DNA of 64,000 nt from Anaeromyxobacteraceae bacterium. Its GTDB lineage: Bacteria > Myxococcota > Myxococcia > Myxococcales > Anaeromyxobacteraceae. Every line of letters starts with the position of its first letter. The stretch's first letter is position 1. The stretch is from contig JASGHJ010000001.1 in assembly GCA_047602405.1 (NCBI GenBank), forward strand, positions 864,001 to 928,000, in the 5' to 3' direction. The position numbers and the translations under genes are program-made. A model generated the notes under the pieces. The model was given only the letters and a program-made list of their open reading frames with translations. It made no database searches and was not told the DNA's origin. Below are positions 22,329 through 61,412 of this stretch, one piece after another.

Positions 22329-24089
<1,761 letters not shown>

Positions 24090-24093
<4 letters not shown>

Positions 24094-25040
24094 GGGAGGG
24101 CCTGTCCTAACACGCGCCCCGCCGTCCGCACCGGATTCGCCAGGAGGTCCCGCCCGAGGTCTGCCTCGAACGTGCGCGCGCCGTCGGCCACCGCGCCGAG
24201 GAGCGCGAGGTGCGCCCGGACGCCGGGGAGCGCGCCGACCGCGACGAGCGCGGAGGACTCGGCGAGACGACCCAGCGCCGCCGCGGGCGAGAGCGGGTGG
24301 AGCGCCGTGTCGTCGCGATCGGCGACGCGCGGGAAGACGAGCGCTGCGGGAGCGCCGGCCTCGTGGCGCTCCCGGCCCGGGAAGAGCGCGCGCGGGTCGA
24401 GCGCGAGCTTGCCGAGCGCGGTCGTCCGATCCGAGGGGACGGCCGGGGCGCCGGGGATGGCGGCGGCGCTCCGCGGCGCGAGGTGGAACGCGCGCGGCAG
24501 CGCGAGCACGCGCGGACCCGCGGCGAGGAGCACGACGTCGTCGCCGAGGTACGCGCAGCCGGCCGCGACGAGCGCGGCGACGAGCGTGCTCTTGCCGCAG
24601 CCGGACGGGCCGGGGAGGAGCAGCACCCGGCCGCCGGGATCCACCACCGCGCCGGCGTGGAGGTGGTGGAGGCCGCGCTCGCGCAGGACCGCCGAGAGCG
24701 CGAGGAGGAGCGGCAGGTGCGCGACCGCCCAGGCCTGGGCCTCGTCGAGCGGCGCCGGGACCTCGATCCGGAGGTGCTCCGCGCGCCTGGTGACGGTCGC
24801 GAGCGAGGTGTCCACGCGGAGCGCGCCGCCTTCGCGCAGGCGCAGCTCGGCGCCCTGGAACGTCTGATCGGGCGGGCCCTCCGGCCTGGTGCGCGCGGCG
24901 ACGACCTCGGTCTCGATGACGAGGCCGGCGGGCGCCCCGGGCGCGGCCGCGGCGACGTGCCCGAGCAGGAGCTCCGCCGGATCCACGCCGGCGGCGCAGC
25001 GGTGCTCGAGGACGAGCCCGTGGAGCGCGCGGCGGGCCAC
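24090..25040 (-). CDS. HPr kinase-like P-loop kinase (lasso-peptide kinase / HprK-related type)
   Basis: LHAGAV...LLLPGPSGCGKSTL...YLGDD. Confidence 0.85.
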
Positions 25041-25044
25041 GGCG

Positions 25045-25789
25045 TCAGCCCGCGTTCTCGACGATGACGCCGTCCTCGCGGAGCTCCCTCACGAGCGTCT
25101 CCACGTGGCGGCGGATGTCGGACGGATTCGATCTCGGGGAACTCGGCGGCGAGCCCCTGCGCGATGGCGGCCTCGTCCGAGGCGCCGGCGGCGAGGAGCT
25201 TCCAGGCGATCACGCCGGTGGCGTTGAGCGTGAGGTAGCGGCGCGTGCCGAGGTGGAGCAGCACGCCCGTCCCGTCGCCGAGCTCGGTGAGGATCGCGTC
25301 CCCGGAGGGCCTGAGGCCTGGCATCGTCGCGCGCTCCCGCGCGGCGAGGAGCGTACCCGGATCCGCCGGCCAGGCGAAGGCGATCGCGAAGCGGCCCGGC
25401 GGCGGCGCGCCGATGGAGGGCTTCCCGTCGCGCAGGAGCCAGGCGTGCGCCCGGTAGTCGCCGGGCATGTGGGTCCGGCGGCGCAGGCCGATGAGGAATT
25501 TCACGTCCGCACCCGCCGCGCGCAGCACCGCGTAGCCCGCGAGCGCACGCCACAGGCAGGTGGTGGGCCAGAGGCGCAGGGGGCGCATGAGGAGGGCGCT
25601 CAGGGACTCGACGGCGAACGTCCCCTGGTCGCCCCTTCGCCCTTCGACAGGCTCAGGGCGAACGGAGACCGGCGCGCCCGCGTCGAGCTGGCGCAGCAGG
25701 TCCGGCAGCGCCTCGCGCCGGAACTGGAGCGGCAGCGTGAGCCGCAGGCGCAGGAGCCGGAGCGCGGTGCGGAGCGAGGCCCGGGCCAC
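25045..25789 (-). CDS. Lasso-type leader peptidase (B2, transglutaminase-like) fused N-terminally to a PqqD/RRE domain; apparent +1 frameshift at ~25127
   Basis: TCLWRALA...IG...AHAWL catalytic motifs, then in frame GVLLHLGTRRYLTLNATGVIAWKLL...IAQGLAAEF; deleting one base at 25125-25129 restores IDPSDIRRHVETLVRELREDGVI. Confidence 0.85.
25640..25665 (+). repeat. REP-like element, short copy 4 (inside the B2 peptidase gene, encoding SVRPEPVEG)
   Basis: CCCTTCGACAGGCTCAGGGCGAACGG shares both arms with the other copies but lacks the internal stem. Confidence 0.65.
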
Positions 25790-25800: not shown

Positions 25801-26724
25801 TCAGCGCACCCAGGACGGCGCGCCGTCGATGCCGGGCGACCAGGTGAGGCGCACGGAGAGCACGCCGCTCACCGCGTCGCGCACGATCACCTCGGCGTCG
25901 CCGAAGCTCGTGTTCATGACGGCGATCGAGTTACCGTCGGGGCTCCACGAGGGCTCGACGTCCGCCGCGTCGGCGAGGATGCGCTCCTGGCCCGTCGCGA
26001 GATCGAGCACGATGATGCGCGCGTCCTGCGCGGGCGTCGCGCGGGCGAACGCGAGGCTCTTCCCGTCCGGCGAGGGCGCCGGGCGGCCGAGGATGCGGCA
26101 CGCGACGGCGCCGCAGCGGAGCGGCGAGGCCGCCTCCTGCGAGACCTGCACCGGGTCGCCGCCGGCGACGGGCACCTTCCAGACCTGGTAGCGGCCGGTG
26201 CGGTTGGAGGTGAAGTAGAGGGTCTCGCCGTCGGGAGACCAGGCCGGCTGGACGTCGTCGGCCGGGGCCGCCGCGAGCGCGACCGGGACGCCGCCGTGGA
26301 GCGGCATCACGTAGACGTCGGCGGTGCCCGCGTCGGGCGACTTGCCGGAGAAGGCGACGTGGGTTCCGTCCGGAGAGACCTGCGGGCTCCCGACGGCGAG
26401 GTCGCCGGTGTCGAGGAGCGTCTCGTAGGGCGCCGCGATGGGGCGGTAGACGAGGCGGCCGCGGCCGTATCGGAAGGCGCGGTAGACCGCCCCCTGGGCC
26501 GCGGTCGAGTAGGAGGGGTCGGTCTCGTCGCCCGGGGTCGCGGCGAGCACGACGTCGCAGGCGCCGTCGGCGCGGATGATGCGGACGTCGTACTGGTCGC
26601 CGCGGCGGGAGGTGTAGGCGAGCCAGCCTCGCTCGGGCGCACCGCACACGTCGGCGCAGCCAGCCGCGCAGACGAGCGCCGCCGCGGCGAGCGCGAGGGC
26701 GCGGACGGGGCTCGTCGGGGACAT
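25801..26724 (-). CDS. TolB-like PD40 beta-propeller lipoprotein
   Basis: Lipoprotein-like signal (CAAGC); repeated P.WSPDG/SPDG..LAF motifs; ATG 26724 is 4 nt after the precursor stop. Confidence 0.85.
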   Translation of the reverse strand: MSPTSPVRALALAAAALVCAAGCADVCGAPERGWLAYTSRRGDQYDVRIIRADGACDVVLAATPGDETDPSYSTAAQGAVYRAFRYGRGRLVYRPIAAPYETLLDTGDLAVGSPQVSPDGTHVAFSGKSPDAGTADVYVMPLHGGVPVALAAAPADDVQPAWSPDGETLYFTSNRTGRYQVWKVPVAGGDPVQVSQEAASPLRCGAVACRILGRPAPSPDGKSLAFARATPAQDARIIVLDLATGQERILADAADVEPSWSPDGNSIAVMNTSFGDAEVIVRDAVSGVLSVRLTWSPGIDGAPSWVR

Positions 26725-26728: not shown

Positions 26729-26890
26729 CTATTCGCCGCCGATGCCGCCGCCGGGGCCGCCGTCGCCGCTGAAGAGCGTGGCGTGCTCGACGCGTCGGCG
26801 CGCGAGGACGCGCGGCGGCTCGTAGGCGGGCCGCTGCGGCGGAGCCGGCTTCGCGGCGGGGAGCTCGGGCTGGGTCTTCTTGGGATCCAT
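26729..26890 (-). CDS. Putative RiPP precursor peptide with lasso-type leader (53 aa; not in the supplied ORF track)
   Basis: Manual translation MDPKKTQPELPAAKPAPPQRPAYEPPRVLARRRVEHATL|FSGDGGPGGGIGGE*; Y(-17) P(-14) V(-12) T(-2); GC3-biased codons; fills the gap between two co-oriented genes. Confidence 0.8.
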   Translation of the reverse strand: MDPKKTQPELPAAKPAPPQRPAYEPPRVLARRRVEHATLFSGDGGPGGGIGGE

Positions 26891-26906: not shown

Positions 26907-28349
26907 TCAGGGAGCGGTGGTGAACTTGAACGGGGCGACGTACTCGCCGTTGCGGCCGGCGAAGTGGTTGCGGGCCGACCAGAAGTAGTCGGTCCCCGCG
27001 GTGAGCCCGGTTAGGTCGGCCGTGAACGTGTAGGTCCACGTGTTGGCTGGCCCTTCGGCCGCGGACGTGGTGGTCACGGCATCGAAGATGGGGTCACCCA
27101 GGGCCGAGCAGTCGGGCGCCTTGCAGAGGATGAACACCCGGTCGCTCGAGGGGACCGTTTCGTACGGATAGTCCACGGTCCACGTGAACGCGGTTACACC
27201 ACGCAGGACGTCCGTTGCGTTGTCGGCCGGGGTCTTGAGGACGGGCGGGCCGGTCACGATGAAGCTCTCCTGCTGCGCGAAGGTGCCGTCGATCACCCCG
27301 CCACCCGGATTCCAGTGGGTCCGCGCCTCCAGGTAGTACCGCTGACCCACAGTGAAGATGAAGTCGCCCAGGTACGAATCGTACGAACCCCAGCCGGCGC
27401 CCGGCGCGGCCCTGTCCACGAAGCCGTTCGAGGGGACGTTGAAGTCGTCGAGCACGAACGGGATGCCGCTGCAGCTGCCGTTCACGAACGGCGCCGAGCA
27501 GATGGTCGCCCGCATCTGCGTGACCCGCGGTTGATGAAAGTCGTCCTTGTTGTCGTAGAGGAACCAGTGGAGCGTTTCGTTGCCCTCCACACGGTCACCG
27601 AGCGTGTCACCGGCCACACGTGGTGCGTTCGGGAACGGATCCGCCCAGATCGCGCCCTTGATGACGAAGGGGCCCGAACCGACCGGCGGGTAATTGAGGT
27701 TCCAGTCCTTCACGATCGGCAAGGCACCGGGTGCGGAGCCGTCCGCCACCGCCGAGCCGGCGAGGCTCTCGTACGGATAGGTGAGGACGTCCGTGTAGTC
27801 GATGTAGCTGCCGTACGGGCTGATCGCATCGTTGCCGGGTGGCACGAAGGTCACGGTCCCCGGGAAGTCCGGGTCCTCGTAAGCCTTGTTCCCGCCCACC
27901 GGCAAGACGCCGGGGTCGCATACGGCGTAGGTCGAGCTCGTCAAGGACGTGATCGTCACGAACAGTCCGGCCAGCCGCTCCGGCAGGTAGTTCGTGATGC
28001 GGACCGGCGTCTGGATCGCGTTCTCGTCGCAGCCCGGCGCGACCGGACCGACGTCGATGAAGGGCGTGACCGAGGCGATCTCCACCGTGCGCGGCGGGTT
28101 CGTGCCCGCATTCTGATCCGTGCCCTCCGGGATCACCGTCCACAGCGCCGACCCGCGCGACCCGCCGGGCCCCGGCGTCGGCGGCTCGATGACCGCCTCG
28201 AACGTGGCGATGCGCTGCGGCCGCGAGGGCGGCAGCGGCTCGACGACCTGCCGCGCCGGCTTCGGCCGGTCGGCGCAGGCGGCCGCGAGCAACAGGGCGA
28301 GGCCGCCGAGGGCGACACGAACACGCATCCTGGAATTCTCCGTGATCAC
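26907..28349 (-). CDS. Hypothetical beta-rich surface lipoprotein with a C-terminal FN3/Ig-like segment (start 28349 or 28328)
   Basis: LLAAAC lipobox; rich in T/G/P/aromatic residues; PVLKTPADNAT...LTAGTDYFWSAR; visibly less GC-rich than neighbours. Confidence 0.75.
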   Translation of the reverse strand: MITENSRMRVRVALGGLALLLAAACADRPKPARQVVEPLPPSRPQRIATFEAVIEPPTPGPGGSRGSALWTVIPEGTDQNAGTNPPRTVEIASVTPFIDVGPVAPGCDENAIQTPVRITNYLPERLAGLFVTITSLTSSTYAVCDPGVLPVGGNKAYEDPDFPGTVTFVPPGNDAISPYGSYIDYTDVLTYPYESLAGSAVADGSAPGALPIVKDWNLNYPPVGSGPFVIKGAIWADPFPNAPRVAGDTLGDRVEGNETLHWFLYDNKDDFHQPRVTQMRATICSAPFVNGSCSGIPFVLDDFNVPSNGFVDRAAPGAGWGSYDSYLGDFIFTVGQRYYLEARTHWNPGGGVIDGTFAQQESFIVTGPPVLKTPADNATDVLRGVTAFTWTVDYPYETVPSSDRVFILCKAPDCSALGDPIFDAVTTTSAAEGPANTWTYTFTADLTGLTAGTDYFWSARNHFAGRNGEYVAPFKFTTAP

Positions 28350-28450: not shown

Positions 28451-29548
28451 TCACCCGCGGTGCCCGCCGCGACGGCCTCGCCAGCCCAGGACGGCCAGCG
28501 GCTGATCCACGAGGAGCCGCCGCACGTGGAGCAGCGGCAGCCACCAGGTCTCGTCCGGCACCCCGTAGCTCGCGGCGAGGTAAGCCCGCGACGGGAAGAG
28601 GGAGATCCAGCCCTTCCGCGAGAGGAGGCGGAGCCGCCCCACCGCACGCTTCCGGAAGCCCGGAGCCCAGCCCGCGGGCTCGAAGGCCTGCCCCAACCGG
28701 GTGGGCGCCGGCGCACGGCTCGCGGCCGCGCTCCGCGCCTCCTCCACGAGCGCGAGGCCCTCGGCCACCGCCGGGCTCCGGCCCGGCTGCGCGAGCGCGC
28801 CCCGCGCGCCGAGCCGGACGAGATCCGCCGCCAGCCGGGGCAGGAAGGCGGGATCGCCCACGTGGTGCACGAGCGCGTGCTCGCACGCGATCACCGCGAG
28901 GTCCTCGAGCGCGGGCACCCGCACCGCGACGCCCTGCACCTCGGCGTGGATCGCTCGCGCGAGGAGCCCCTCGGTGCCGCCCTCCACCTCCGCCGGCGGC
29001 GCGACGTGCAGGTCGAGCTTCACGCCCGTCGTGTCCACGTAGCCGCCGACGCCAGTGGCCACCGGCTCCGCCGCGGCGGCAGCGAGCCCGTGCGCGCCCT
29101 CCAGCGTGGGCCTGCGCGGCAAGGGGCGCGCGCCGTCGGCCCGGAGCACAGCGTCGGCCTTGCCGGCGTCGGCGCCGCGCACCAGGAGGTCGAGGTCGGA
29201 CACGTGTCGGAGCGGCCCGTAGCCCGGGTCGTGCACGCAGAGTGCGACGCCCTTCAGCGCGAGGCAGGGCACGCCCGCCGCCGCAAGCGCGCGGGAGGCC
29301 CGCGCGAAGGCATTCACGGTGAGCGCGGTCTGGGCCGCGTCGTCCTCCGCGTGGCGGCGGAGCGCGGCGTAGCCGGGAGGCGCCGGCGAGAGGCCGAGCG
29401 GCGCGGCCGCGCGCCACGCGAGGCCGGAGACACCGAGCGTGCGCGCGCGGTCGGCGAGCGCAGTCCAGTCGAGCGCTCCGACGGGCTCCGCCGGCAGCTG
29501 CAGCACGGCGCGCAGCAGGAAGCCCTGCTCCGCCTCGCCGAGGCTCAT
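28451..29548 (-). CDS. Nucleotidyltransferase family protein (NTP_transf_5-like)
   Basis: LALKGVAL...LRHVSDLDLLV...LDLH; ATG 29548 overlaps the stop of the WecA-like gene (ATGA). Confidence 0.82.
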   Translation of the reverse strand: MSLGEAEQGFLLRAVLQLPAEPVGALDWTALADRARTLGVSGLAWRAAAPLGLSPAPPGYAALRRHAEDDAAQTALTVNAFARASRALAAAGVPCLALKGVALCVHDPGYGPLRHVSDLDLLVRGADAGKADAVLRADGARPLPRRPTLEGAHGLAAAAAEPVATGVGGYVDTTGVKLDLHVAPPAEVEGGTEGLLARAIHAEVQGVAVRVPALEDLAVIACEHALVHHVGDPAFLPRLAADLVRLGARGALAQPGRSPAVAEGLALVEEARSAAASRAPAPTRLGQAFEPAGWAPGFRKRAVGRLRLLSRKGWISLFPSRAYLAASYGVPDETWWLPLLHVRRLLVDQPLAVLGWRGRRGGHRG

Positions 29549-31029
29549 GCGCCCTGCGCCGGGAGGAGCCCGCGGGCGCGCGCCTCCGCGAGGCGATCGA
29601 GCCGGTCGAACGCGCCGGACACGTGCTCGCAGAGGAGCTCCACCGCGATCTCGGTGTCGCGGTCGATGGAGAACCGGCCGTCGTCGAAGCCGAGCTCGAG
29701 GTGGTGCTCCCCGGGGCGCTCCGCGACGAGCCCGTAGCGGGCGCGGAAGAGCGGCCCCTCCGCCTCCTCGAAGCCGTCCTCGAAGGGCTCGGAGCCCGCG
29801 AGGGCGCGCGGGCCCGCGAGGCGCAGCGCGACGCCCGAGGCGCCGAGCTCGCGGGAGGCGCCGCGCACGATCCCCCAGATCTCCTCGACCGACTCGGCGG
29901 TGCGGAGCGCCTCGCCCGCCCGCCGGACCGAGGCGCGGCGATCGAGGTTCCGGCGCCGCGTCTCGAGCAGGCGCTGGGCGCGGGAGAGGTCGAGGTAGCC
30001 GAGCCGGCGGAGCGCGAAGAAGATCACGACCGACATCCCGAGCAGGAGGCCGGCCGCCTGCAGGCCGGTCGTCACGAACGACATGCCGAGCGCGACGACC
30101 CCGAGCGCGACGGACGCGCCGTAGAGCACGAGCACCGCCTGCCGGTGGCTGAGGCCGAGCTCCATGAGGCGGTGGTGGATGTGGGCCCGGTCGGCCTGGA
30201 AGATGGGGACACCCTTCATCATCCGGCGCACCATCGCGAGGAAGGTGTCGGCGATGGGGATGCCGAGCGCGATGATGGGGACGACGATCGCGACCGCCGT
30301 GGAGGACTTCTGGTTCTTCATGATCGCGGTGGCCGCGAGCACGAAGCCGAGGAACATCGACCCCGCGTCGCCCATGAAGATGGTGGCGGGGTTGAAGTTG
30401 TAGAAGAGGAAGCCCGCGACGGCGCCGGCGAGGGTCGCCGCGAAGAGCATCATGAGCGGCTCGCCGCGCCACGCCGCGATGACGAAGGTCGTGGAGATCG
30501 CCGTGAGCGCGACGCCGCCGGCGAGCCCGTCGAGCCCGTCGATGAGGTTCATCGCGTTGATGACGCCGGTGATCCACAGCACCGTGAACGGCAGCGCGAG
30601 CCAGCCGAGCTGGATCGGGTCGCCGAACGGGTTCGTGATCTCGGTGACCCGCGCGCCCATGCCGAAGAGGAAGAGCGCGACCGCGAACTGGATCGTGAAC
30701 TTCAGCCCCGCCTTCATGCCGCGGAGGTCGTCCCAGACCCCGAGCACCGCGATGGCGAGGCCGCCCGCGAGGAGCGCGATCGCGTTCGTGCGGTCCGCCC
30801 AGAACCGGCGCCCGACCTCGGAGTTCGCCAGGAGGAGGGCGAGCAGCGGCACGTAGAAGCCGATGACGATGGCGACGCCGCCGAGCCGGGGCACCGGGCG
30901 GCCGTGGACCTTCCGGGCGGAGAGCGCGTGGTCGAGCCAGCCGCGGCGCAGCGCGAGGTTGCGCACGAGCGGCGTCAGGATGGCGGCGACCACCATCGCC
31001 GCGATGAACGCTGCGAACACGGTCCTCAA
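29545..31029 (-). CDS. Undecaprenyl-phosphate HexNAc-1-phosphate transferase (WecA/MraY family) with C-terminal cytoplasmic extension; start TTG 31029 or GTG 31062
   Basis: RKVH..PVPRLGG, GVWDD, NAMNLIDGLDGLA, NFNPATIFMGDAGS, ADRAHIHHRL. Confidence 0.9.
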   Translation of the reverse strand: MRTVFAAFIAAMVVAAILTPLVRNLALRRGWLDHALSARKVHGRPVPRLGGVAIVIGFYVPLLALLLANSEVGRRFWADRTNAIALLAGGLAIAVLGVWDDLRGMKAGLKFTIQFAVALFLFGMGARVTEITNPFGDPIQLGWLALPFTVLWITGVINAMNLIDGLDGLAGGVALTAISTTFVIAAWRGEPLMMLFAATLAGAVAGFLFYNFNPATIFMGDAGSMFLGFVLAATAIMKNQKSSTAVAIVVPIIALGIPIADTFLAMVRRMMKGVPIFQADRAHIHHRLMELGLSHRQAVLVLYGASVALGVVALGMSFVTTGLQAAGLLLGMSVVIFFALRRLGYLDLSRAQRLLETRRRNLDRRASVRRAGEALRTAESVEEIWGIVRGASRELGASGVALRLAGPRALAGSEPFEDGFEEAEGPLFRARYGLVAERPGEHHLELGFDDGRFSIDRDTEIAVELLCEHVSGAFDRLDRLAEARARGLLPAQGA

Positions 31030-31168
31030 GCGGCGTCCTGCTCCCGGGCCAGCGGCAGCCACTCCCCGTCGCTGCGATGGCGTCCGGGGACGTTACCACG
31101 GGTGCGACGGGCCCCGAAATCGGGACCCCGCCCGCGCGGACCCGACCGCGGGTTCCCGGGCGGGTCGT

Positions 31169-32356
31169 TCACCGAGCGTCCGTGAGCACCCGGGCGATCG
31201 CCGCGGTGCGCACCCTGCGTTCGTGGCGCACCTCGAACGCGCTCCGGACGTGCGCGGAGGTGGGAGCGCTTCGAAGCAGGCGATCGAGCGCCGCGCGCGC
31301 ACCCTCGACGTCGCCGTTCGCCACGACCTCGCCGGCGCCCTCGCGGACGATCGTCCGCGCCACCTCGGAAGCCGGCGGCCCGACGTACAGCGCCGGCCGC
31401 CCCGCCGCGAGGATGCCGTAGAGCTTCGACGGCTCCATCAGCCCGAGCGTCTCCGGAGTCTGCGAGACGAGGTGCACGTCGCCCGCGGAGAGCGACTCGG
31501 CGAGCCCTTCGCGCGGGACGAACGGCAGGAGCCTCACGTTCGGGAGCTCCCGCGCGGCGGCCTCGACGACCCCGCGCCGCCCACCGCCGCCCACGAAGAC
31601 GAACGCGAGGTCGTCGCGCTCACGGCAGCGCCGGGCGAGGCCGACCAGCGTGTCGAGGTCGTGCGCGCGCCCCATGTTGCCGGAGTAGAGGACGACGCGC
31701 CGGTCGCCCAGGCCGAGCCCTTGCCGGAACGCGTTCACCTCCGGCGGCACCGGCCGGACGTTCTCGCCGTCGGCCCAGTTCGGCAGGACGTGCACGCGCG
31801 CGGGGTCGACGCCCTTCGCCGCCACCCGCGCCTTCATCGGCTCGCCGGGGACCACGACGGCGTCGGCGCCGCGCAGCGCCGCGCGGGACACGCGCTCGGC
31901 GAGCCAGGTCGCCGGCGAGCGCGCGCCGAGCACGCCGAAGGCCACCGCGAGCTCCGGGTAGAGATCCTGGAGCCAGTAGACGAGGCGCGCGCCGCGCAGC
32001 CGCTTCACCGCGAGGCCGACCGAGGCGAGGAGCGGCGGGGCGCTCGTCGCGACGACGACGTCTGGCCGCGGCAGCGTGAGCGCGGTGGCGAAGGCGGAGG
32101 CGAAGTAGGTGGCGTAGTCGGCGACCCGGCGGACGAGGGCGCCCTTCCCGAGCACCGTGTTGCGGGTGCGGACGATCCGGACGCCGCCCCAGGCCTCCTC
32201 GTGCAGGAGGCGCGTGCCGCCGGGCCCGGTGCCGGACGAGGCGAGCACCGTCACCTCGTGGCCCGCGCGCGCGAGGTCCTCGGCGAGGTCGGCCGCGAGC
32301 AGCGCGAGCGCGTCGTCGTACGGCCAGAAGTAGTGGTTGAGGAGGAGGACCTTCAT
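31169..32356 (-). CDS. GT4 glycosyltransferase (WcaI/WbuB-like)
   Basis: YWLQDLYPE, LPNWAD, YSGNMGRAH, PSKLYGILAAGRP. Confidence 0.88.
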   Translation of the reverse strand: MKVLLLNHYFWPYDDALALLAADLAEDLARAGHEVTVLASSGTGPGGTRLLHEEAWGGVRIVRTRNTVLGKGALVRRVADYATYFASAFATALTLPRPDVVVATSAPPLLASVGLAVKRLRGARLVYWLQDLYPELAVAFGVLGARSPATWLAERVSRAALRGADAVVVPGEPMKARVAAKGVDPARVHVLPNWADGENVRPVPPEVNAFRQGLGLGDRRVVLYSGNMGRAHDLDTLVGLARRCRERDDLAFVFVGGGGRRGVVEAAARELPNVRLLPFVPREGLAESLSAGDVHLVSQTPETLGLMEPSKLYGILAAGRPALYVGPPASEVARTIVREGAGEVVANGDVEGARAALDRLLRSAPTSAHVRSAFEVRHERRVRTAAIARVLTDAR

Positions 32357-32925
32357 CCGGCCCGCTCGGCGATGACCCGTTCCTTCACCTTCACCGCCGG
32401 TACTCCTGCGTAGACGCCCCACGGCTCCGTGTCGCCGGAGAGCACCGAGCCCGCCCCGAGCACGGCGTGCGAGGCGAGCCGGCTGCCCGGGAGGAGCAGG
32501 GAGCCCACCGCGGCCCAGGCGCCGTCCTCGATGACGACCTCGCGGACGACGAGATCGAAGGTGGCCTTCGACCAGTCGTGGTTGCCCGTCTCGACCATGC
32601 AGCCCTGCGAGAGGCACGCGTGCGCGCCGATGCGAACGTCGGCGAGCGTGTCGAGCCAGACACCCTCGCCGAGCCACGTGTGGTCGCCGACGTGGAGGCG
32701 CCAGGGGTACTTCACGTTGAGGCGCGGCTTCAGCACGACCCCGGCGCCTACCTCCGCGCCGAACGCGCGCAGGAGCGCGGCCTTCAGGCCCGACGGCCAG
32801 GGGAACCAGGTGAGGAAGAACGCCGCGTTCACGACGAGCCAGAGCAGGCGCACCGGCAGCGAGCGGCCGGGGCGGTACCAGGCGTTGTCGAAGCGGTCCA
32901 GGCGGACCGGGCTGCGTTCACTCAC
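32353..32925 (-). CDS. wcaF: WcaF-family polysaccharide acetyltransferase
   Basis: LLRAFGA.VG..V...P..NVKYPWRL.VGD..WLGE, CLSQG....TGNHD; hexapeptide repeats. Confidence 0.85.
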   Translation of the reverse strand: MSERSPVRLDRFDNAWYRPGRSLPVRLLWLVVNAAFFLTWFPWPSGLKAALLRAFGAEVGAGVVLKPRLNVKYPWRLHVGDHTWLGEGVWLDTLADVRIGAHACLSQGCMVETGNHDWSKATFDLVVREVVIEDGAWAAVGSLLLPGSRLASHAVLGAGSVLSGDTEPWGVYAGVPAVKVKERVIAERAG

Positions 32926-34097
32926 CGCATCACCTCGACCGAGGCTGGCCGAGCGCCGCCTCCGAGGAGCCAAGCATACACGGCGATCAGCGAGGCCGCG
33001 ACCGAGGGCCACGTGTACGCGCGCTCCACGAGGGCGCGCCCTGCGGCACCGAGCGCGGCGCGTTCCGCCGGGGAGCGCGAGAGCAGGGTCTCCAGCGCCG
33101 CCGCGACGGAGGCCGCGTCGGCCTCGCACAGCAGGCCCGCGCCCGGGGCCTCGACGTCGAAGTTGCACGCGCGCGTGATGACCACCGGCAGCCGCCAGGC
33201 CATCGCCTCCAGCACCGCGATCGAGAAGCCCTCGGTGTACGACGGGAGCGCGAAGGCGTCCGCTGCCGCGAAGGCCTCGGCCTTCGCCTCGCCCCAGAGC
33301 GGCCCGACGAAGTGCACGCGGCCCCCGAGGCCGCGCGCCTCCGCGTCCCGGCGGACCTCGGCCTCGTGGCCCAGCTGATCGGGGCCGGCGACGACGAGGC
33401 TCCAGCCTTCGCGGTCGAGGGTCCCCGCCTTCGCCAGGCGCGCCCACGCGTCGACGAGGACGTGCAGGCCCTTCTTCGGGTGGAGGCGCCCGAGGAAGAG
33501 GAGCAGTCGGCCCGGTGACAGCGAAGGGAACCTGCGCCGGAGCGCGTCCCGCGGCGGCGCCCCCGCGATGTCCGGCAGCTCGACGCCGTTCGGAACGATC
33601 GCGACGGGGCTGGTGAGGCCGAACGCCCGGAAGCTCCTCGCCTCCTCGGCGTTGAGCGCGTGCAGGCAGGCGGCACGGCGCAGGTTGTCGTCCTCGACGA
33701 AGGCTCGAAAGACCCGCTTCTTCCAGGCGGAGCGCGCGAGCGCCGGCGCCTCGAGCATGCCGTGCGGGCTCACCACCACGGGCCGCCCGGTGCGCCGGCC
33801 GAAGTCGCATGCGTCCTTCGAGGTCCAGGTGAAGAGGCCGTGGAGGTGGAGGAGCTCGGGCGGTGCCGCGGCGAGCGCGCGGGCGAGCCCCGGGGCGCGG
33901 CCGAGCGCGAGCGGCCCCGCCGCGGGGTGGACGCGCGGCGATGGTATGCCCTCCTGCGGGCGCTCCGCGGGGTCCTCCACGCCGAGCACCTCGACCGATG
34001 CGCCGGCAGCGGCCTGGGCGCGCGCGAGCGCGCCGATCACCGGCGGGATGCCGCCGCCGCGGTTCGAGAGGAGCCAGGTGAGGTGGGTGACCTTCAC
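32922..34097 (-). CDS. GT4 glycosyltransferase
   Basis: SPHGML, FLGRLHPKKG, PSYTEGFSIAVLEAMA. Confidence 0.9.
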   Translation of the reverse strand: MKVTHLTWLLSNRGGGIPPVIGALARAQAAAGASVEVLGVEDPAERPQEGIPSPRVHPAAGPLALGRAPGLARALAAAPPELLHLHGLFTWTSKDACDFGRRTGRPVVVSPHGMLEAPALARSAWKKRVFRAFVEDDNLRRAACLHALNAEEARSFRAFGLTSPVAIVPNGVELPDIAGAPPRDALRRRFPSLSPGRLLLFLGRLHPKKGLHVLVDAWARLAKAGTLDREGWSLVVAGPDQLGHEAEVRRDAEARGLGGRVHFVGPLWGEAKAEAFAAADAFALPSYTEGFSIAVLEAMAWRLPVVITRACNFDVEAPGAGLLCEADAASVAAALETLLSRSPAERAALGAAGRALVERAYTWPSVAASLIAVYAWLLGGGARPASVEVMR

Positions 34098-35281
34098 GGC
34101 AACCACCTCGCGAGGCTGAACGCGCTCGCAGGGCCGCGCTCCCGCGCGAGCGCGACGGTGCGGACGAGGGCTTCCGCGAAGGTCTCGGGTGTGAGCGCGG
34201 CGACGAGCCGGCGAGAGGCCTCACCCATTACGGCGAGCGCGGCATCGGGCAGCGCTGCCATGCGCTGGAGGCGCTCCCCGAGCTCGCCCGGCCGGGACGG
34301 ATCGAATAGGAAGCCGTTCTCGCCGTCCCGCACGAGCTCTGGCGCGCAGCCGGCCCGCTCGGAGACGACGAGCGGGAGGCCAGCGGCCGCGGCCTCGTTC
34401 ACGACGAGCCCCCACTGCTCGTGCGTGCTCGGGAGGACGAACGCCGAGGCGAGGCCGAACCAGGCCGGGAGCTCGGGGTACTGGACGAAGCCGGGCAGGC
34501 GCACCGCATCGGCGAGGTGGTGCCGGTCGATAGCGGCCTCCAACGCCGCGCGCTCCTCACCGTCGCCGAGGAGCACGAGCCCCCAGGGCGCCTGGGCTGC
34601 CGCGCGGTAGCCGGCGTAGGCATCGACCAGCGCCGGGAGGTTCTTCTTCGCGATGAAGCGGGCGGAGGCGAGGAAGTAGCGCGCGGGGAGCCCGAGCCGC
34701 GCGCGCAGGGCGGGAGCGTCTGCGCGGGCCGCCGCCGCGCCGCTCGCGAAGTGCGCGTTGTCGACGACGTCGTACCCGGTGACGATCCGGTCGGCCGGCA
34801 TGCCGAGCCTCGCGAGGTACTCCGCGTGGCGGCGGCCCGCGACGAGCGCCGCCGCGCAGGCGCCGACGACGCCGCGCTTGAGCGCCTCTCGCCAGGCGAC
34901 GCGGGGTGCGTCGCGCTCGTGGCTGTCGGAGAAGATCGCGGCGGGCCTGCCGTTCGCGGCGGCCCAGGCGATGGCGGCACGGGACTCGGGAAAGCCCCAG
35001 CCGTTCGCGACGACGACGGCCGGACGGAGCTCGGCGAGCGCGGCGCGGGTGGCCCGGCGGAGCTCGGCCGGACGGAGCGCGAGGTAGTCGGCGCCAGGAA
35101 AGAGCGGGTGGGTGCGAAACGAGGCCGCCTCGCCGCCGGACCAGGCGTACCGCGTGGAGCCGGCGGCGATCTCGAGCACCGTGAGGTCGAGCGCGTCGGT
35201 CCGGCGGGCCACCGCGGCGAAGCGTGCGGCGTGGTAGGGCCCGAGCCGCTCGACGAGGACGGCGACCCGGGGCGGGCTCAT
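34094..35281 (-). CDS. GT4 glycosyltransferase
   Basis: GPYHAARF, ARFIAKKN, PSTHEQWGLVVNEAAAAGLP. Confidence 0.9.
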   Translation of the reverse strand: MSPPRVAVLVERLGPYHAARFAAVARRTDALDLTVLEIAAGSTRYAWSGGEAASFRTHPLFPGADYLALRPAELRRATRAALAELRPAVVVANGWGFPESRAAIAWAAANGRPAAIFSDSHERDAPRVAWREALKRGVVGACAAALVAGRRHAEYLARLGMPADRIVTGYDVVDNAHFASGAAAARADAPALRARLGLPARYFLASARFIAKKNLPALVDAYAGYRAAAQAPWGLVLLGDGEERAALEAAIDRHHLADAVRLPGFVQYPELPAWFGLASAFVLPSTHEQWGLVVNEAAAAGLPLVVSERAGCAPELVRDGENGFLFDPSRPGELGERLQRMAALPDAALAVMGEASRRLVAALTPETFAEALVRTVALARERGPASAFSLARWLP

Positions 35282-36606
35282 GCAGGGGACCGGGCTCCGC
35301 CTTCGGGCTCGGCGTTCTCGAACCGGCCGAGCCCGGCGTACCACCAGACCCACCCGACCGGCGCGAGCATGAAGAGCACGCGGAACAGGAACGCCTCGAG
35401 CGACTGCATGATGAGGTAGATGGAGAGCGCTAGCGCGACGCCGTAGACGACGATCCAGATCCCGCCCTTCGTGACCGAGTTGCGCCAGCTCCGGCCGTAG
35501 AAGTATCCGAGCCCGAACATCACGGCGACCATGCCCCACGAGAACTCGATGAACATGTCAGCGACGATGCCGGTGGCCGCGCCGAACGCGCCCACCCAGC
35601 CCATGATGTGAGTCATCGCGTCGATGTCGACGCCCATGTTGACCTCGACGTCGGCGCCGAAGGTCTTCTTCGCGAACTCGTACTTCTCGGGCCAGATGGA
35701 GCGCGGGATGGGGCGGATGAAGAGGACGGTCGCGTAGCGGCCGCCCCAGTAGTACTGCCCCGTCTCGGATGCCGTGTAGACGGAGCCCGCGCCGTAGATG
35801 AATTCGTTGCCTGACCCGGCGCTCAAGACCTCGGTGGGATCACCCTCGAGTCGGAACTCGGATCCGATGTAGATATTCTGCCGGTTGGCGACGAGCAGGA
35901 GCAACAGGACGCCGACCGCCGCTCCACCTCCGAGGACCTGCAGGAGCAGTGGACGACGGCCGCGAATGAGGTAGACACCCGCGAGGATGGTGACGAGCAC
36001 GACGAAGGTGGGCCCTCGCCGCGCACCCAGCAGCCCCTGAATTGCAAGCGGTGCTCCAAAGAGCGCAACCCACGTCCAACTCTGGATGCTCCCGACGACG
36101 CGCCCGGAGGCGAGCAGGAGCAAGATGGCGGGCGAGGTCATCAGGTACAGCTCGCGCACGTAACCGGAGTCAGACCAACCTCCGCCGTAGGCGACGCCGT
36201 AGGCCCGCGAGAACCCGCCCATCGCGAGGATTCCAGCGCCGTAGCCCCAGACTCCAGCAAGGCCAACGATGATCGCGGCGTTATAGACGCGAGGCCCTTC
36301 CGGCAGGAGCCGGACGAAACCCTCACGAAAAGTGCCGCCGTACGCACCGATCGCGACGCCAAGCACGAGTGCAGCGATGCCGACAAGGTTCACGAGCTGA
36401 CCGAAGACGAGCTGTCGCTCCGTGAGGTATCCGAAGAACCCGTCCTCGGCCGCGATTTTCAGCGGCATGAGAACGTACAGGAACAGCGCCATCGCACCCA
36501 GGACGAGCGCCGGGTGGAGGGAGTCCCGCTGGCCACGCACGCCCGTCCAGATGGAGAGGCCGATGATGAGGGCGATCGCGATCGTGTAGCTGTAGAAGAT
36601 CGTCAT
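35278..36606 (-). CDS. Polysaccharide polymerase (Wzy-like integral membrane protein)
   Basis: About ten hydrophobic segments, GARRG, FIRPIPRSIWPEK, D.FIEFSW; located among GT genes. Confidence 0.7.
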   Translation of the reverse strand: MTIFYSYTIAIALIIGLSIWTGVRGQRDSLHPALVLGAMALFLYVLMPLKIAAEDGFFGYLTERQLVFGQLVNLVGIAALVLGVAIGAYGGTFREGFVRLLPEGPRVYNAAIIVGLAGVWGYGAGILAMGGFSRAYGVAYGGGWSDSGYVRELYLMTSPAILLLLASGRVVGSIQSWTWVALFGAPLAIQGLLGARRGPTFVVLVTILAGVYLIRGRRPLLLQVLGGGAAVGVLLLLLVANRQNIYIGSEFRLEGDPTEVLSAGSGNEFIYGAGSVYTASETGQYYWGGRYATVLFIRPIPRSIWPEKYEFAKKTFGADVEVNMGVDIDAMTHIMGWVGAFGAATGIVADMFIEFSWGMVAVMFGLGYFYGRSWRNSVTKGGIWIVVYGVALALSIYLIMQSLEAFLFRVLFMLAPVGWVWWYAGLGRFENAEPEGGARSPA

Positions 36607-37715
36607 GCGCGCGGCCAGAGCGCCTGAAGCCGGGTGACGGCTTGGTCCCAGGTCAGCTCGCCCGAGCGGGCTCGAACGGCGGCGAGCAACCCGTCGTAAC
36701 GCATCGGCTCCCAAAGGTCGAGCAGCCCAATCGCCACCGCTCCGGGGGTGGCCTGGGCTGGCGCGAGCAGGCCCACGCCCGCATCGATGCAGTCGGGGAT
36801 GCCGCCCAAGTCGACGCCCGCCACCGGCACGCCGAGCCGAAGGAACTCGAGCGTCGAGATCCCCAGCGCCTCCGCGAAGGAAAAGAGACAGCCGAAGTGC
36901 GCGCGCCGCGCTGCCGTGGCGAAGCGCGCAAGGTCTCGGGTCTTGTCGAAGTAACCGAGTGGCTCCAGCAGCCGGTGGGCCGGCACGTCGGCAGGTGATG
37001 GACCGAGCGCGAGCACGCGCACCCGCTGCCCCCGCGCCTCGATCGCCTCGGCCACCTCGAGCAGGAACGGCAGTCCCTTCCTGCGCCAGTCCTTGCCCAC
37101 GAACCCGAGCCGGAGCTCGGAGCGGTCGACCGGCCCGTGCGGCGGGAGGCTCGCCACGGCGACCTCGTCGAGGTTCGCGCCCGCGCGGACTACGTGGACC
37201 TTCGCGGCGGCGATCCCGTAGGCCTCGACCACCGAACGCGCCGCCCAGCGCGACATGCAGACCACCCGCTCGGCGCGCTCGTACGCGGCGCGCTCGCGCG
37301 CCAGCGCGTCGGCCCGCACCCGCGACGAGACAATAGCCGCAAGCCCGTACTCCTCGAAGTTCTGGCGGAGGGTGGCGTCGATGTAGCAGCTCATGCGCTC
37401 GACGCGCGCGGACTCGGGCGGGAGCAGGGCAAAGTGGGTCAGGATCTCGGCGCCCTCCGCCTCGCCGGCGCGCTGGGCCCAGAGCGCGTCCAGAAAACCG
37501 GCTGTGTACTGGAAGCCGCCACGCTCGCCGGTCGTGAGGAGCTGGCCGAGGTTCCAGAGCGCTCTCCGGCCGCGAAGCCGCTCCGGAGCGAGCGCGAGCC
37601 CGCCCTGGAGGAAGCCGCGCGGCCGCGCCGCCTCGAGGAGATGGCGCGGGATCCCGCTCCACGTCGCCTCGCGCGTGGCGTCGCCGACCACGGCGAGCAG
37701 ACGCGGCGGGCTCAC
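36603..37715 (-). CDS. GT4 glycosyltransferase
   Basis: TWSGIP, FVGKDWRRKG, AEALGISTLEFLRLGVP. Confidence 0.85.
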   Translation of the reverse strand: MSPPRLLAVVGDATREATWSGIPRHLLEAARPRGFLQGGLALAPERLRGRRALWNLGQLLTTGERGGFQYTAGFLDALWAQRAGEAEGAEILTHFALLPPESARVERMSCYIDATLRQNFEEYGLAAIVSSRVRADALARERAAYERAERVVCMSRWAARSVVEAYGIAAAKVHVVRAGANLDEVAVASLPPHGPVDRSELRLGFVGKDWRRKGLPFLLEVAEAIEARGQRVRVLALGPSPADVPAHRLLEPLGYFDKTRDLARFATAARRAHFGCLFSFAEALGISTLEFLRLGVPVAGVDLGGIPDCIDAGVGLLAPAQATPGAVAIGLLDLWEPMRYDGLLAAVRARSGELTWDQAVTRLQALWPRA

Positions 37716-38866
37716 GACCAGTCGGCCTCCAGGGCGTCGAGCCAGTGGCCCGCGCAGGCCACGGCGGAGAACTCGGGCGCCCCGCGCGCCGCCTTCGCGG
37801 CCCAGCGGTCGTAGTTCTCGACGTTGGTGATGAGCTCCAGGATCGCGTCGGCCATCGGCCTAGGGTCGCGCGGCGGGACGAGCCTGCCGTAGCCCGCCTC
37901 GAGCACCTCCCGGCAAGCGGGGACGTCGGAGGCGATCACGGGGATGCCCGCCGCCAGCCCCTCGACCACCGCGATCCCGAAGCCCTCGTCCCGAGTGGTC
38001 GAGAAGACGTAGACGTCCATCTGACCGAGGAGCTCGGGCACGTCGGCGCGCTTTCCCCAGAACCTGGCGACCTGGGCGATCCCGAGCTCCCCCGCGAGGG
38101 CCTCGAGGTGCTCCTTCGTCTCTCCTTCACCGACGATCCAGAGCCGCGCGTCCGGCCGAACCTCGTGGACGAGCGCCATCGCGCGGACGAGCGTCTCCTG
38201 GTCCTTGATGATGCTGAGGCGCGCCACCATGCCGATGACCGGCGGACTGTCCTGGCGCTGCGCCCGGGAGCGTTTCACGCGCTCGGTGACGGCCGCCACG
38301 TCGATGCCGTTCAGCACGGGCACCGACCCGCGCGGGAGCACGCCGGACAGCCCGATGAACTCGTCGTGAACGTACTTCGAGCAGGAGATGATCGGGGTGC
38401 GCAGGATGCGCGAGGCGCGGACGATCCAGCGCCAGAGGCGGCGGCGCTCCTCCGATTCGGGCGGCGGGTTCCCGGCGTGCACGAGAACGGTGGGGATACC
38501 GGTCAGCCGCGCCGCGATCGCCACGAGGACGTGCAGCCCGAACGGGTAGACGACGATCGCCCGGGGGCGAAGCTCGCGGAGAAGACGGGCGACCTCCCGT
38601 ACGAAGCGGACGCGCGCGTCGCGGTGGTAGACGATCTGGAACAGCCGCGCGTTCGGCAGTCCCTGGAAGCGCTCCCGCATCCCGCCGTCCGGCCCGATGT
38701 TGAGCAGGAGCCGCTCCTCGAACGGCAGGTTGGTCATGAGCTGGTAACAGAGCGTCTCGTTCCCGCCGAACGGCAGGCCGTTGAGCACGTGGAGGACCCG
38801 GTCACCGGGGCGCGCGCTTCCTTTCCGCGAAGGCGGCGCCGCCTGGGCTATCGTGTCGGCGGACAT
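37712..38866 (-). CDS. GT4 glycosyltransferase
   Basis: GGNE, GMVARL..IKD, EGFGIAVVEGLAAGIP. Confidence 0.88.
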   Translation of the reverse strand: MSADTIAQAAPPSRKGSARPGDRVLHVLNGLPFGGNETLCYQLMTNLPFEERLLLNIGPDGGMRERFQGLPNARLFQIVYHRDARVRFVREVARLLRELRPRAIVVYPFGLHVLVAIAARLTGIPTVLVHAGNPPPESEERRRLWRWIVRASRILRTPIISCSKYVHDEFIGLSGVLPRGSVPVLNGIDVAAVTERVKRSRAQRQDSPPVIGMVARLSIIKDQETLVRAMALVHEVRPDARLWIVGEGETKEHLEALAGELGIAQVARFWGKRADVPELLGQMDVYVFSTTRDEGFGIAVVEGLAAGIPVIASDVPACREVLEAGYGRLVPPRDPRPMADAILELITNVENYDRWAAKAARGAPEFSAVACAGHWLDALEADWS

Positions 38867-40139
38867 GCAGCGAGGAGTGAACCCCATCGGCGGCGCGGAC
38901 GCCAGCGCACGGCGCTTCGCCGTGCTCCAGCCCGGCGCGCGGCTCCACTACGCGGTCCCCGCCGTGCTCGCTCGCGCGGGCCGGCTGGCGCGCCTGTACA
39001 CCGACGCCCACGCCCGTTCGGCCCTTCCGTTCCGGCTGCTCGAGCTCGCGCCGCGCGGGAGCCTGCCCGGGCCGCTCGCCCGGCTGGCCGGCCGCCGGCT
39101 CCCGCCGGAGCTCGAGCCGCTCACGATCTCCCTGCCCTGGGCGACGCTCGCCGAGTTGCTCGCGCGCAAGCTCCGGACCGGCGGCGGGCTCGTGTCGGTC
39201 CCCGGCACCGAGGCCAGGCTCCGGCGGACCGCGCTCGCCCGGAACTTCGACGGCGCCGGCGGGCTGTACGTGCTCTCGAACGGCGACCTCGACCTCGTCC
39301 GCGAGGCGAAGCGGCGAGGGCTCTTCGTCGCCTACGAGCAGATCATCAACCCGCACGTCGGGCGCATCCTCCGCGAGGAGCGCGCGCGCCACCCCGACCT
39401 CGAGCCGCAAGACACCGAGGCGGAGGTCGAGGAGGGCCTGCGGCGTGACGAGGAGGTCTGGCGGCTCGCCGACGTGGTACTCGGCGCCTCCGGGCACGTG
39501 CGCGGCGAGATCCTCGAGCACGGCGTCTCCGCCGAAAAGGTGCGCGTCGTCCCGTACGGCATCGGCGCGGGCTGGCTGGAGCTCGCGCCTCGTCCCGTCC
39601 CCGGGCGCGTGCTCTTCGTGGGCTCGGTCGGGCTCCGCAAGGGCGTGCACGTCCTCGCCGCGGCCTCCCGCGAGCTCCGCCGCCGCGGCGTGCAGCACGA
39701 GCTCCGGGTCGTGGGGCCCATCGAGCTCGCCGCCGCGCGCGCCGCCTGGTCGAAGCGGCTCGCGAGCCCGGAATTCGAGAGCGTCACGTACCTCGGTCAG
39801 GTGCCGCGCGCGGAGGTCCGCGCCGAGTTCGCGCAGGCGGACATCTTCGTGCTCCCAACCCTCTCCGACAGCTTCGCGCTCGTGCACCTCGAGGCGATGG
39901 CTTGCGGCGTGCCGGTCGTGACGACGCCGAGCTGCGGCTCGACGGTCCGCGACGGCTTGGACGGCTTCATCGTGGGCACTCGCGACGCCATCGGGCTTGC
40001 CGACCGGATCGAAGCGCTGATCTCGGACCGTGCGCTGAGGGAGCGCTGCTCCAGGAATGCGCGGGCGCGCGCTTCGGAGTTCACCTGGGACTCGTACGCG
40101 CAGCGGCTCCTCGGCGCCGTTTCGCAGGACGCCTTCTGA
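38865..40139 (+). CDS. GT4 glycosyltransferase (paralogue of 47794-48951); start uncertain
   Basis: GARLHYAVP, FVGSVGLRKG, DSFALVHLEAMACGVP. Confidence 0.85.
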   Translation: MQRGVNPIGGADASARRFAVLQPGARLHYAVPAVLARAGRLARLYTDAHARSALPFRLLELAPRGSLPGPLARLAGRRLPPELEPLTISLPWATLAELLARKLRTGGGLVSVPGTEARLRRTALARNFDGAGGLYVLSNGDLDLVREAKRRGLFVAYEQIINPHVGRILREERARHPDLEPQDTEAEVEEGLRRDEEVWRLADVVLGASGHVRGEILEHGVSAEKVRVVPYGIGAGWLELAPRPVPGRVLFVGSVGLRKGVHVLAAASRELRRRGVQHELRVVGPIELAAARAAWSKRLASPEFESVTYLGQVPRAEVRAEFAQADIFVLPTLSDSFALVHLEAMACGVPVVTTPSCGSTVRDGLDGFIVGTRDAIGLADRIEALISDRALRERCSRNARARASEFTWDSYAQRLLGAVSQDAF

Positions 40140-40165
40140 GCTATGCCCGGCTCCGCGCCGTTCGA

Positions 40166-41305: not shown

Positions 41306-41530
41306 AAGCCGACCATCCGCTTCAGTAACGGCATCGCATCGAGGACGTGCGTCGCAGCGTTCACGGACCCGTCCCAGCCCCCCGCGTCCAGCGAATGCCG
41401 GGCATTCAGCTTCCGCTCCGTCATCCCGGTCAGGTCTTCCGCGATCAAGCTCGCCTCCGCTCTAGGGCAGCCTACAGCCTGACCGGCCGCTCGCGAAGCG
41501 GCGCCTCGCGTCGTATGCTGCGAACGTCTC

Positions 41531-42856: not shown

Positions 42857-42970
42857 TGACCCGGTCGCGCGCCTTGAGCGCGGGCCGCTCCAACATACAG
42901 CTCGGGCGAGCACGAGCCCGTCGAGCGACCGAATCCGGGGGCCGCTTAGCCTAGCCCTCGGACGGCAATA

Positions 42971-45193: not shown

Positions 45194-45348
45194 CCTGGTC
45201 AGGCCCTCGCGGTCTGTGCGCCCCGTCCCCAATCGGCACGCGCTGGAGGTCAATTCTTACGGCGACTGGCGGGATGAAGTCGAGCGAGCGTCAGCCGATT
45301 TCGCGACGGGCTGGGAGAAGCCGCCAATCTGTGGTTCTTTGATAGGGC

Positions 45349-48951: not shown

Positions 48952-48966
48952 GGTGGGCGGCGGGGC

Positions 48967-52450: not shown

Positions 52451-52463
52451 TCGTCGGCGCGCC

Positions 52464-53762: not shown

Positions 53763-53863
53763 GGGCTCGATGCGTTGCTGTCGCTGAGCGCCGCCCCTTG
53801 AAGCGCTCTCTACTGCCTCGACGCTGAGCTTCGGTCGCTCCTCACGTCCGCTGCCAGGTTTGG

Positions 53864-54646: not shown

Positions 54647-54760
54647 CCCCACCGAATACGACGCTCCGCGAGCCCTGCGCAATGAGTCGTCCGAGGCTTC
54701 TGCACGGCGCTCGTTAGGCCACTTCAATCCCTCCTCCGTACCGACTTCTTCAAGAAACTG

Positions 54761-57809: not shown

Positions 57810-57925
57810 CGTAAGAGTTCATCATAGGTGACCCTGTGCCTCGAGAGAAACGAGCGTGCTATGAGTCACGCGCCCGGCTCGGCTCAAGGTGGAAACTTCA
57901 CGATGTCCCTGTGCGCTCCCAGCTC

Positions 57926-59275: not shown

Positions 59276-59355
59276 TCACGAGCGGCGATCTTGCCGGTGG
59301 GGGCACGTTCACGTGTGCAGGTAGGTGTAGAGGCTAACCAGGCCGATGAGCGAGC

Positions 59356-59427: not shown

Positions 59428-59498
59428 CCCCGACGAATACGACGGTCCGGGAGTCCGGGCAACGCGCCGGTGGGATCTGCACTAGAATCTAGGTACGC

Positions 59499-61402: not shown

Positions 61403-61412
61403 GGCGTCGCCG

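Follow-up and report, generated by a model that had tools for sequence, protein, structure and literature searches.

A short precursor peptide with a lasso-type leader in a cyclase-free kinase cassette of Anaeromyxobacteraceae, and two lipoprotein families as its candidate partners

The window, that is, the whole stretch of 64,000 nucleotides of Anaeromyxobacteraceae DNA that was analysed, carries on its minus strand a row of genes in the order NTP_transf_5 nucleotidyltransferase (NTase), 473-aa lipoprotein, short precursor peptide, PD40 lipoprotein, B2 leader peptidase with an RRE (B2-RRE), HprK-like kinase and ABC exporter, directly adjoining a large polysaccharide cluster at its WecA end. 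The precursor gene encodes 53 aa at 26729..26890 (minus strand; ATG at 26890, TAG at 26731-26729). Its translation had been given exactly in an earlier note, in which the strand was left unstated. When Phe40 is taken as +1, a core boundary inferred from the spacing of lasso leaders, the leader covers residues 1-39 (26774..26890) and places Tyr23 at -17 (codon 26824-26822), Pro26 at -14, Val28 at -12 and Thr38 at -2 (codon 26779-26777), exactly the lasso-type spacing described in that note. The predicted 14-aa core, FSGDGGPGGGIGGE (26732..26773), has acidic residues only at positions 4 and 14, the last residue being Glu, and a single Ser at position 2 (codon 26770-26768), which is the putative phosphorylation site.

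Several lines of evidence bear on the reality of this short ORF. A strict YxxPx[LVI]x9T scan over the 14,884 short ATG ORFs of the window's genome (G000) returned four matches, and two of them adjoin the only two RRE genes of the genome, each of which is accompanied by a B2 gene. A codon-usage gene caller picked the ORF with a score of 19 (GC3 0.92). In G010, a relative that is 99% complete and carries an orthologous cassette, 7 synonymous and 4 non-synonymous changes are found over 32 codons between Tyr(-17) and the stop; the core has five synonymous changes and a single substitution, Asp4 to Gln, and the stop is kept. Because of the motif scan, the gene caller, the codon changes in G010 and the 383 proteins retrieved by a precursor profile (see below), the ORF is more than a product of chance, and on sequence grounds it is a genuine gene under purifying selection; the conservation on which the earlier note had made its reading depend is thereby borne out. 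It had also been thought that routine annotation would miss the ORF. In fact, the precursor and several relatives exist as called proteins, although those that are named are "hypothetical", and neither the precursor nor the five relatives scanned have a match among Pfam or NCBIfam families.

The B2 gene (25045..25789, minus strand) carries the RRE, of the PqqD family, at its C-terminus, scores over the cut-offs of PF13471, PF05402 and NF033537, and retains the catalytic Cys and His. The solved structures closest to its RRE profile are the lasso RREs TbiB1 and TfuB1. The B2-RRE fusion is intact in G010 and 14 other loci (15 aligned proteins), while it is split in some loci. In the kinase (24090..25040, minus strand), His126/His128, the P-loop and Asp167-Asp168 are conserved, and no solved close relative was found for it. 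Its best NCBIfam match belongs to the HPr-rel-A cassette (TIGR04352/TIGR04353), yet it reaches only 56 bits against the TIGR04352 cut-off of 200; likewise, a related RRE scores 15 bits against the TIGR04353 cut-off of 35, and the RRE scores better with lasso RRE models. The ABC exporter (22329..24093, minus strand; ABC_membrane + ABC_tran) has homologues of at least 64% identity at 8 of 25 maturase-bearing loci. The NTase (28451..29548, minus strand; PF14907, E 2.8e-25) has an intact Asp118-x-Asp120; its phylogenetic profile is uninformative because NTP_transf_5 genes occur in 62 of the 66 genomes of the family, and none was found in G010. A scan of metagenome contigs with the B2 protein gave no confirmed relative. 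A third B2-like match in G000 (C1:1640961) was set aside, as it falls in an unrelated gene that lacks an RRE.

Two of these genes are broken in G000: one extra base at about 25127 puts the last RRE helix out of frame, and another lies at about 22983 in the exporter gene. The cassette could accordingly be decaying, with the ORF as a non-functional remnant, but this is very unlikely. The two breaks consist of an identical +1 change, in which GATC has become GATTC on the plus strand, and neither is seen in G010, for which reason a systematic assembly error is favoured and the frameshifts are likely to be assembly errors; moreover, the precursor is under purifying selection and the catalytic motifs of kinase, NTase and B2 are intact. 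The frequency of GATTC is slightly higher genome-wide (14.1 per 100 kb) than in the relatives' loci (11.1). G000 has a second cassette at a contig end (L001, G000:C1:2374500-2394422), consisting of a methyltransferase, a precursor with an acid-free, Met/Thr-rich core, a frameshifted radical SAM gene, split B2/RRE, a kinase and Wzc, with an NTase and an Rhs-type gene upstream. GC3 of this locus is below that of the rest of the genome, which may point to an island or a mis-joined end.

The neighbours of the precursor genes are lipoproteins of two kinds, PD40 propellers and proteins with a domain here called LND. In the window, the PD40 (TolB-like) beta-propeller lipoprotein (25801..26724, minus strand; PF07676, E 1.6e-27) starts 5 bases past the precursor stop. 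A second system-type PD40 lipoprotein is encoded in G000 at C1:1198644-1199552, distant from both cassettes, and the same is found in G010. On the other side, the stop codon of the predicted 473-aa lipoprotein (26907..28328, minus strand; no Pfam or NCBIfam match) stands 16 bases ahead of the precursor start. This protein is a divergent LND member (LND at about 27615-28259), which matches an LND HMM built without it at E 6.6e-8. Its full model is of mediocre quality (pLDDT 62.9) and matched generic FN3/Ig arrays only, and the FN3/Ig-like C-terminus predicted from it is a lead only. In general, LND is an unannotated N-terminal domain of about 160 aa followed by variable domains such as RCC1, Vgb/NHL-like, DUF1554, Big_5 and metallophosphoesterase; it forms 519 clusters at 50% identity, and a lipobox-like Cys is present in 119 of the best 150. 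The model of the domain (pLDDT 84.7, pTM 0.81) has strands at 9-19 and 24-29, a disordered linker at 33-55 and then a beta-sandwich. A PDB sequence search with the LND profile found nothing, ESM Atlas gave no usable match and Foldseek none at E<=0.001. The best fold match in VIA is WSSV VP37, a non-pilin, with a Z of 8.7 and an rmsd of 3.3 over 115 residues, which is near background level.

The precursor belongs to a family whose size was estimated with two profiles: one built on 8 precursors matched 383 proteins at E<=0.01, and the other, built on 14 divergent precursors, matched 103, of which 92 were new. The 212 members examined are the best 120 of the 383 and these 92. Their leaders follow Y[EQ]PPR[IVL]xK[KR]R[SA]V[SA]R[AV]TL, where the full conservation of Tyr, Pro and the -12 residue is partly by construction, as these residues anchored the alignment. 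Thr(-2) is found in 207/212 and Phe(+1) in 155/212. Ser or Thr stands at +2 in 200/212 and at +3 in 9/212, and one lies within +1 to +3 in all 212. Together with the precedent of Ser3 in LppA and BsfA (see below), this supports, by analogy, the proposal of Ser2 as the likely kinase target. The cores are Gly-rich and 11-30 residues long (median 15), position 3 is Gly or Ala in most of them, and the C-terminal residue is Gly in 106/212. Adenylation of a C-terminal Gly was considered as a modification, but the window core ends in Glu and no ThiF-like gene was seen among the scanned ORFs of the window cassette. Where a source is named, it is mostly Anaeromyxobacter or Anaeromyxobacteraceae. Among 401 genomes drawn from the phylum, 23 gave a precursor match, one of them (G296, E 8e-4) lacking the motif and treated as false; 19 of the 22 matches outside G000 fall in its own family. 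Literature on the precursor family or its lipoproteins was not found in a search that left aside most subscription papers and the supplements on LPP, which could list such clusters. By its sequences, this is a large, undescribed peptide family of Anaeromyxobacter-type myxobacteria, and the window precursor is a conserved member of it. A tandem duplication in G010 (L014:1-2911) has the order precursor-PD40-LND-precursor-PD40 with two different cores.

The distribution of the parts was followed in 66 family genomes of three genera, the same set in each search; these are related genomes and not independent samples, and the profiles were seeded partly from genomes that were then counted. B2-RRE is present in 23/66 and LND in the identical 23, whereas precursor, kinase and the PD40 subfamily are each present in 22/66, all within the same 23. 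The three single misses (precursor, kinase and PD40) concern assemblies of 460-580 contigs. The other 43 genomes have none of precursor, B2-RRE, LND, kinase, PD40 subfamily and radical SAM. Pairing is also seen at the level of genes: the end of an LND gene lies within 600 nt of 37 of 46 precursor genes, always on the same strand, while PD40 lies within 3 kb of 20/46. Of the 46 precursors, 14 have an LND at a distance of up to 5 kb and none of the enzymes within 8 kb, indicating duplication of the precursor-LND pair without the enzymes. The copy numbers of precursor and LND follow each other (7/11 in G246, 6/7 in G217, 3/5 in G252 and 3/4 in G267), while B2-RRE stays at 1-2. AraC-family regulators (Arabinose_bd + HTH_18) are found beside several precursor-LND units (L058, L061, L062, L063, L071).

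Exceptions to close linkage are known as well. The second precursor locus of G000 has no LND nearby, the system parts of G022 are spread over four places with all retained, and in G080 and G125, both outside the family, precursor and LND are encoded at separate loci. LND and B2-RRE are both found in G166 and G175, and G177 (89% complete) has LND only. G166 was found through LND alone, and a divergent precursor with the core FSGTVNPDGGTVDFGD was then seen directly behind its LND. LND can exist without the pathway, because the Myxococcaceae genomes G308 and G373, the latter complete, have LND and no B2-RRE match. The co-occurrence may reflect nothing more than movement of the cassette as a block, which can account for part of it; block transfer accounts less easily for G022, G031, G080 and G125, where the parts are scattered.

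With leader motif YxxPx[LVI]...Thr(-2), RRE and B2 peptidase, the window locus has features of a lasso system, while Asp/Glu at core positions 7-9 and a cyclase in the cluster are both missing. According to RRE-Finder, about half of lasso-type RRE matches come without the full peptidase-cyclase set. The notion that the product is nevertheless a true lasso peptide, with an asparagine-synthetase homologue from another locus as its cyclase, could appeal to this canonical leader with its RRE and B2, to Asp7 in 40 cores of the best 120 of 383 and to Asp/Glu at 7-9 in 73/212 examined cores, but it is largely refuted. Positions 7-9 of the window core are free of acidic residues and G010 has Gln in place of Asp4, and 118/212 examined cores lack Asp/Glu altogether. 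Queried with the genome's AsnB, 62 fetched stretches gave no Asn-synthase homologue. PF00733 is matched in 49/66 family genomes, with no match listed close to a B2-RRE gene; at E<=1e-10, 6 of the 23 system genomes lack a match, including G246 and G217, which are 98% complete and carry 7 and 6 precursors, respectively. The two Asn-synthase homologues of G000 are above the AsnB cut-off and far under the lasso-cyclase cut-off, which makes them AsnB-type. Judged from the sequences, the precursor would not yield a lasso peptide, and the earlier claim of a non-lasso core stands.

Cyclase-free kinase/NTase cassettes are already known from the linear polyphosphorylated peptides (LPP). The cluster lppA-K-B-S-D-N of Paenibacillus alginolyticus (Popov et al., 2026, PMC13381572) represents clusters with an RRE together with an HprK-like kinase, an NTP transferase, an exporter and a signal-peptidase-like protease. 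LppK polyphosphorylates Ser3 of the LppA core with the assistance of the RRE, while LppN was inactive in a heterologous test, and the roles of LPP and paeninodin are stated there to be unknown. The system described here is similar in its YxxP leader, RRE, HprK-like kinase, NTP transferase, MsbA-like exporter and lack of a cyclase, in a hydroxyl residue near the core N-terminus, and in a frequent polysaccharide-locus context. It differs in the protease (signal-peptidase-I-like LppS in LPP, a B2 cysteine peptidase here with no signal peptidase among the scanned cassette ORFs), in the RRE (discrete there, at the B2 C-terminus here), in the target residue (Ser3 against Ser/Thr at +2), in the core (45 aa against 11-30 Gly-rich aa), and in the leader, where only YxxP is shared with YxxPxVLxHQxIxFETxxS. 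The hosts are Bacillota in the case of LPP and myxobacteria here, with an optional radical SAM enzyme and two putative partner lipoprotein families; the words "lipoprotein" and "Myxococc" are absent from the main text of the LPP paper. By sequence comparison, the window system would thus be a variant of the LPP kind and not a member, differing in protease, discrete RRE and motif, and the putative lipoprotein partnership is its new element. At L071:11912-12793, an S24/S26 peptidase-GNAT fusion is encoded inside a cassette with a discrete RRE, an echo of the LPP signal peptidase.

A second close relative is the phosphorylated lasso cluster bsfA, K, B1, B2, N, C, D of Bradymonas sediminis, a related deltaproteobacterium, in which BsfK phosphorylates Ser3 of the BsfA core with the help of the RRE and cleavage is carried out by BsfB2 together with BsfB1 (Duan et al., 2023, PMC10368454). 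The leader with Tyr at -17, Pro at -14 and Leu at -12, B2 cleavage, RRE-assisted kinase action on a Ser near the N-terminus, NTase and exporter are alike, whereas bsf has a lasso cyclase and Ile(-2) in place of no cyclase, Thr(-2) and a fused B2-RRE. Paeninodin and pseudomycoidin share the HprK-like kinase and nucleotidyltransferase, and in pseudomycoidin the NTase adds one or two hexoses to the phosphate (reviewed in PMC8498205). These peptides are cyclised and modified at a C-terminal Ser; such a PadeK-type target was rejected here, as only 3/212 examined cores end in Ser.

The polysaccharide cluster next to the cassette (29545..63624) is of the Wzx/Wzy type, with WecA-like, GT4/GT2, Wzc, Wzx, Wzy_C and GDP-mannose dehydratase genes, and is regarded as context only. 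Roughly a dozen glycosyltransferase genes lie in it on both strands, along with methyltransferases, acyltransferases and a GT87. Possibly the peptide is a primer or anchor for this exopolysaccharide (EPS), its phospho-Ser2 receiving sugars from the EPS glycosyltransferases. The contiguity with the WecA end would suit such a role, as would the Wzc gene adjoining the second G000 locus and the occurrence of LPP and paeninodin clusters in capsule loci (PMC13381572), but EPS-type homologues lie near only 3 of 24 other maturase loci (counted with the window EPS proteins as queries, which divergent genes could escape), and the idea is improbable.

A further enzyme with a restricted distribution is a system-specific radical SAM protein with extra C-terminal Cys residues, present in 14 of the 23 system genomes and 0 of the 43 others; in G000 it is encoded at the second locus. 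It might act in trans from there on the window precursor and install, as the class-defining modification, a cross-link, e.g., an aromatic-x-Gly/Ala cyclophane on F-[ST]-[GA], for which the Gly/Ala at position 3 of most cores would be fitting. This is hardly likely, as the enzyme is missing from the window cassette, from G010 and from 8 other system genomes, Phe1 is replaced in 57/212 examined cores, and no named maturase was matched above its cut-off; rather, it may tailor other subfamilies. A Cys5-Cys12 pair is found in 20/212 examined cores. Two-Cys cores (L079, L082, L083, L085, L086, L087) come mostly from genomes without a detected system radical SAM (G398, G315, G199, G259, G262), which suggests that a disulfide may replace the enzymatic cross-link in them, G217 being an exception.

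The cores have some likeness to the N-terminal beta-hairpin of LND, first noticed by eye and tested afterwards. The hairpin consensus is F-[TE]-[GA]-x-V-D-P-x-x-G-T-[LF]-T-I and that of the cores F-[TS]-[GA]-x-G-P-x-x-G-G-[LV]. Among 241 offsets, the core profile fits LND best exactly at the hairpin Phe, with +2.9 bits against -6.2 for the next, and in 125/200 precursors the best window for the hairpin profile is at core position 1. The likeness is high in certain divergent cores: FTVCADPAAGTIVPCP scores 21.2 bits, FSGTVNPDGGTVDFGD 18.2 and FSCAFDPELGEVVCR 10.5, where true hairpins have a median of 25.4 and a 5th percentile of 13.4, so that the first two are inside their range; scores of at least 15 bits were reached by 27 of 175,122 background windows, true hairpins included. 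The G166 core is identical to its own LND hairpin at 7 of 15 residues. Family-wide tests were less clear. A column-shuffle null equalled the likeness in 34/1000 trials, and the corresponding null gave 2/400 for LND alone and 84/400 when all six system families were allowed. Most of the signal lies in the first three residues, and only 28/200 cores beat tail-shuffles at p<=0.05. Core and neighbouring hairpin show no cognate co-variation (39 pairs, mean quantile 0.51). The pair in the window itself ranks among the poorest, its core scoring 3.3 bits and 98% of other hairpins matching as well. The resemblance, strong in two or three divergent cores and weak over the family, is thus to be taken as a sequence-based lead. 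The Cys5-Cys12 pair may be of the kind expected of a closed hairpin.

Short beta-elements supplied in trans are familiar from chaperone-usher and type V pili, which use donor-strand complementation, and type V pilins are also lipoproteins. By analogy of mechanism only, a short element would here, too, complete a beta-sandwich surface protein or exchange in it, although fold searches did not group LND with pilins. We know of no ribosomal modified peptide in a donor-strand-type role.

Taken together, the precursor with its leader motif, the RRE-B2 fusion, the kinase, the NTase and the exporter are encoded with two lipoproteins in a single cassette, and across genomes these parts are found together. 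By analogy with the biochemistry of lasso, LPP and bsf systems, the RRE would bind YEPPRV of the leader, the kinase would phosphorylate or polyphosphorylate Ser2 on the precursor, and B2 would cut after Thr-Leu to free FSGDGGPGGGIGGE; that the cassette co-occurs as one unit and acts in these three steps is probable. Less firmly, the NTase would put a hexose on the phosphate as in pseudomycoidin, possibly with sugars from the adjacent polysaccharide cluster, and the ABC exporter would secrete the product. From the genomic pattern, the product would then bind the LND lipoprotein at about 1:1, and the PD40 lipoprotein would serve as a loading or receptor factor, one per system; a direct partnership of the peptide with LND or PD40 has even odds. 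The overall reading, a cyclase-free pathway to a short, linear, Ser2-phosphorylated and perhaps glycosylated peptide that is exported and acts with surface lipoproteins, is given a probability of roughly 0.5. The most likely mode of action would be that the core serves as a free copy of the LND hairpin, swapping with it or capping it, and this mode is itself doubtful. It is equally doubtful that the modified core is a structural part, whose hairpin copy swaps into a family of outer-membrane lipoproteins carrying variable cargo domains to cap, anchor or release them with PD40 as the loader.

Or the product may be a linear phosphopeptide signal or antagonist, with PD40 as its receptor or immunity protein and the LND proteins as co-regulated passengers. 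The gene with the closest tie to the enzyme cassette is that of PD40, AraC-type regulators stand ahead of several precursor-LND units, LPP and paeninodin show a patchy, conflict-like spread (PMC13381572), and two genomes have LND without B2-RRE, all of which would fit. Yet a diffusible product needs no near-identical precursor copy by almost every LND operon, and the core-hairpin likeness in G166, G398 and G080 stays unexplained. A signal or antagonist is an unlikely but serious candidate.

If the structural-part reading were true, it would be a new role for a RiPP and the first function for phospho-Ser/HprK/NTase peptide pathways. If the peptide binds LND, RiPP chemistry would be building or controlling the display of cell-surface proteins and not making an antibiotic or a signal. 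The family offers a handle on the role of LPP and paeninodin, as the core is short and easily made, one hydroxyl is conserved, the enzymes are minimal and there are two candidate partners, to which a nearly perfect phylogenetic profile and the pairing of the genes point. Even without LND binding, linear phosphopeptides would be extended to myxobacteria, where the protease is a different one and the B2-RRE fusion is reversed, and the unannotated lipoprotein domain LND is defined. The linker after the LND hairpin (e.g., L099:9228-9857, L101, L109) often ends in QAL/AL-x-x-[IV]P, which from its sequence is a possible processing site that would release the cargo domain from the lipid anchor.
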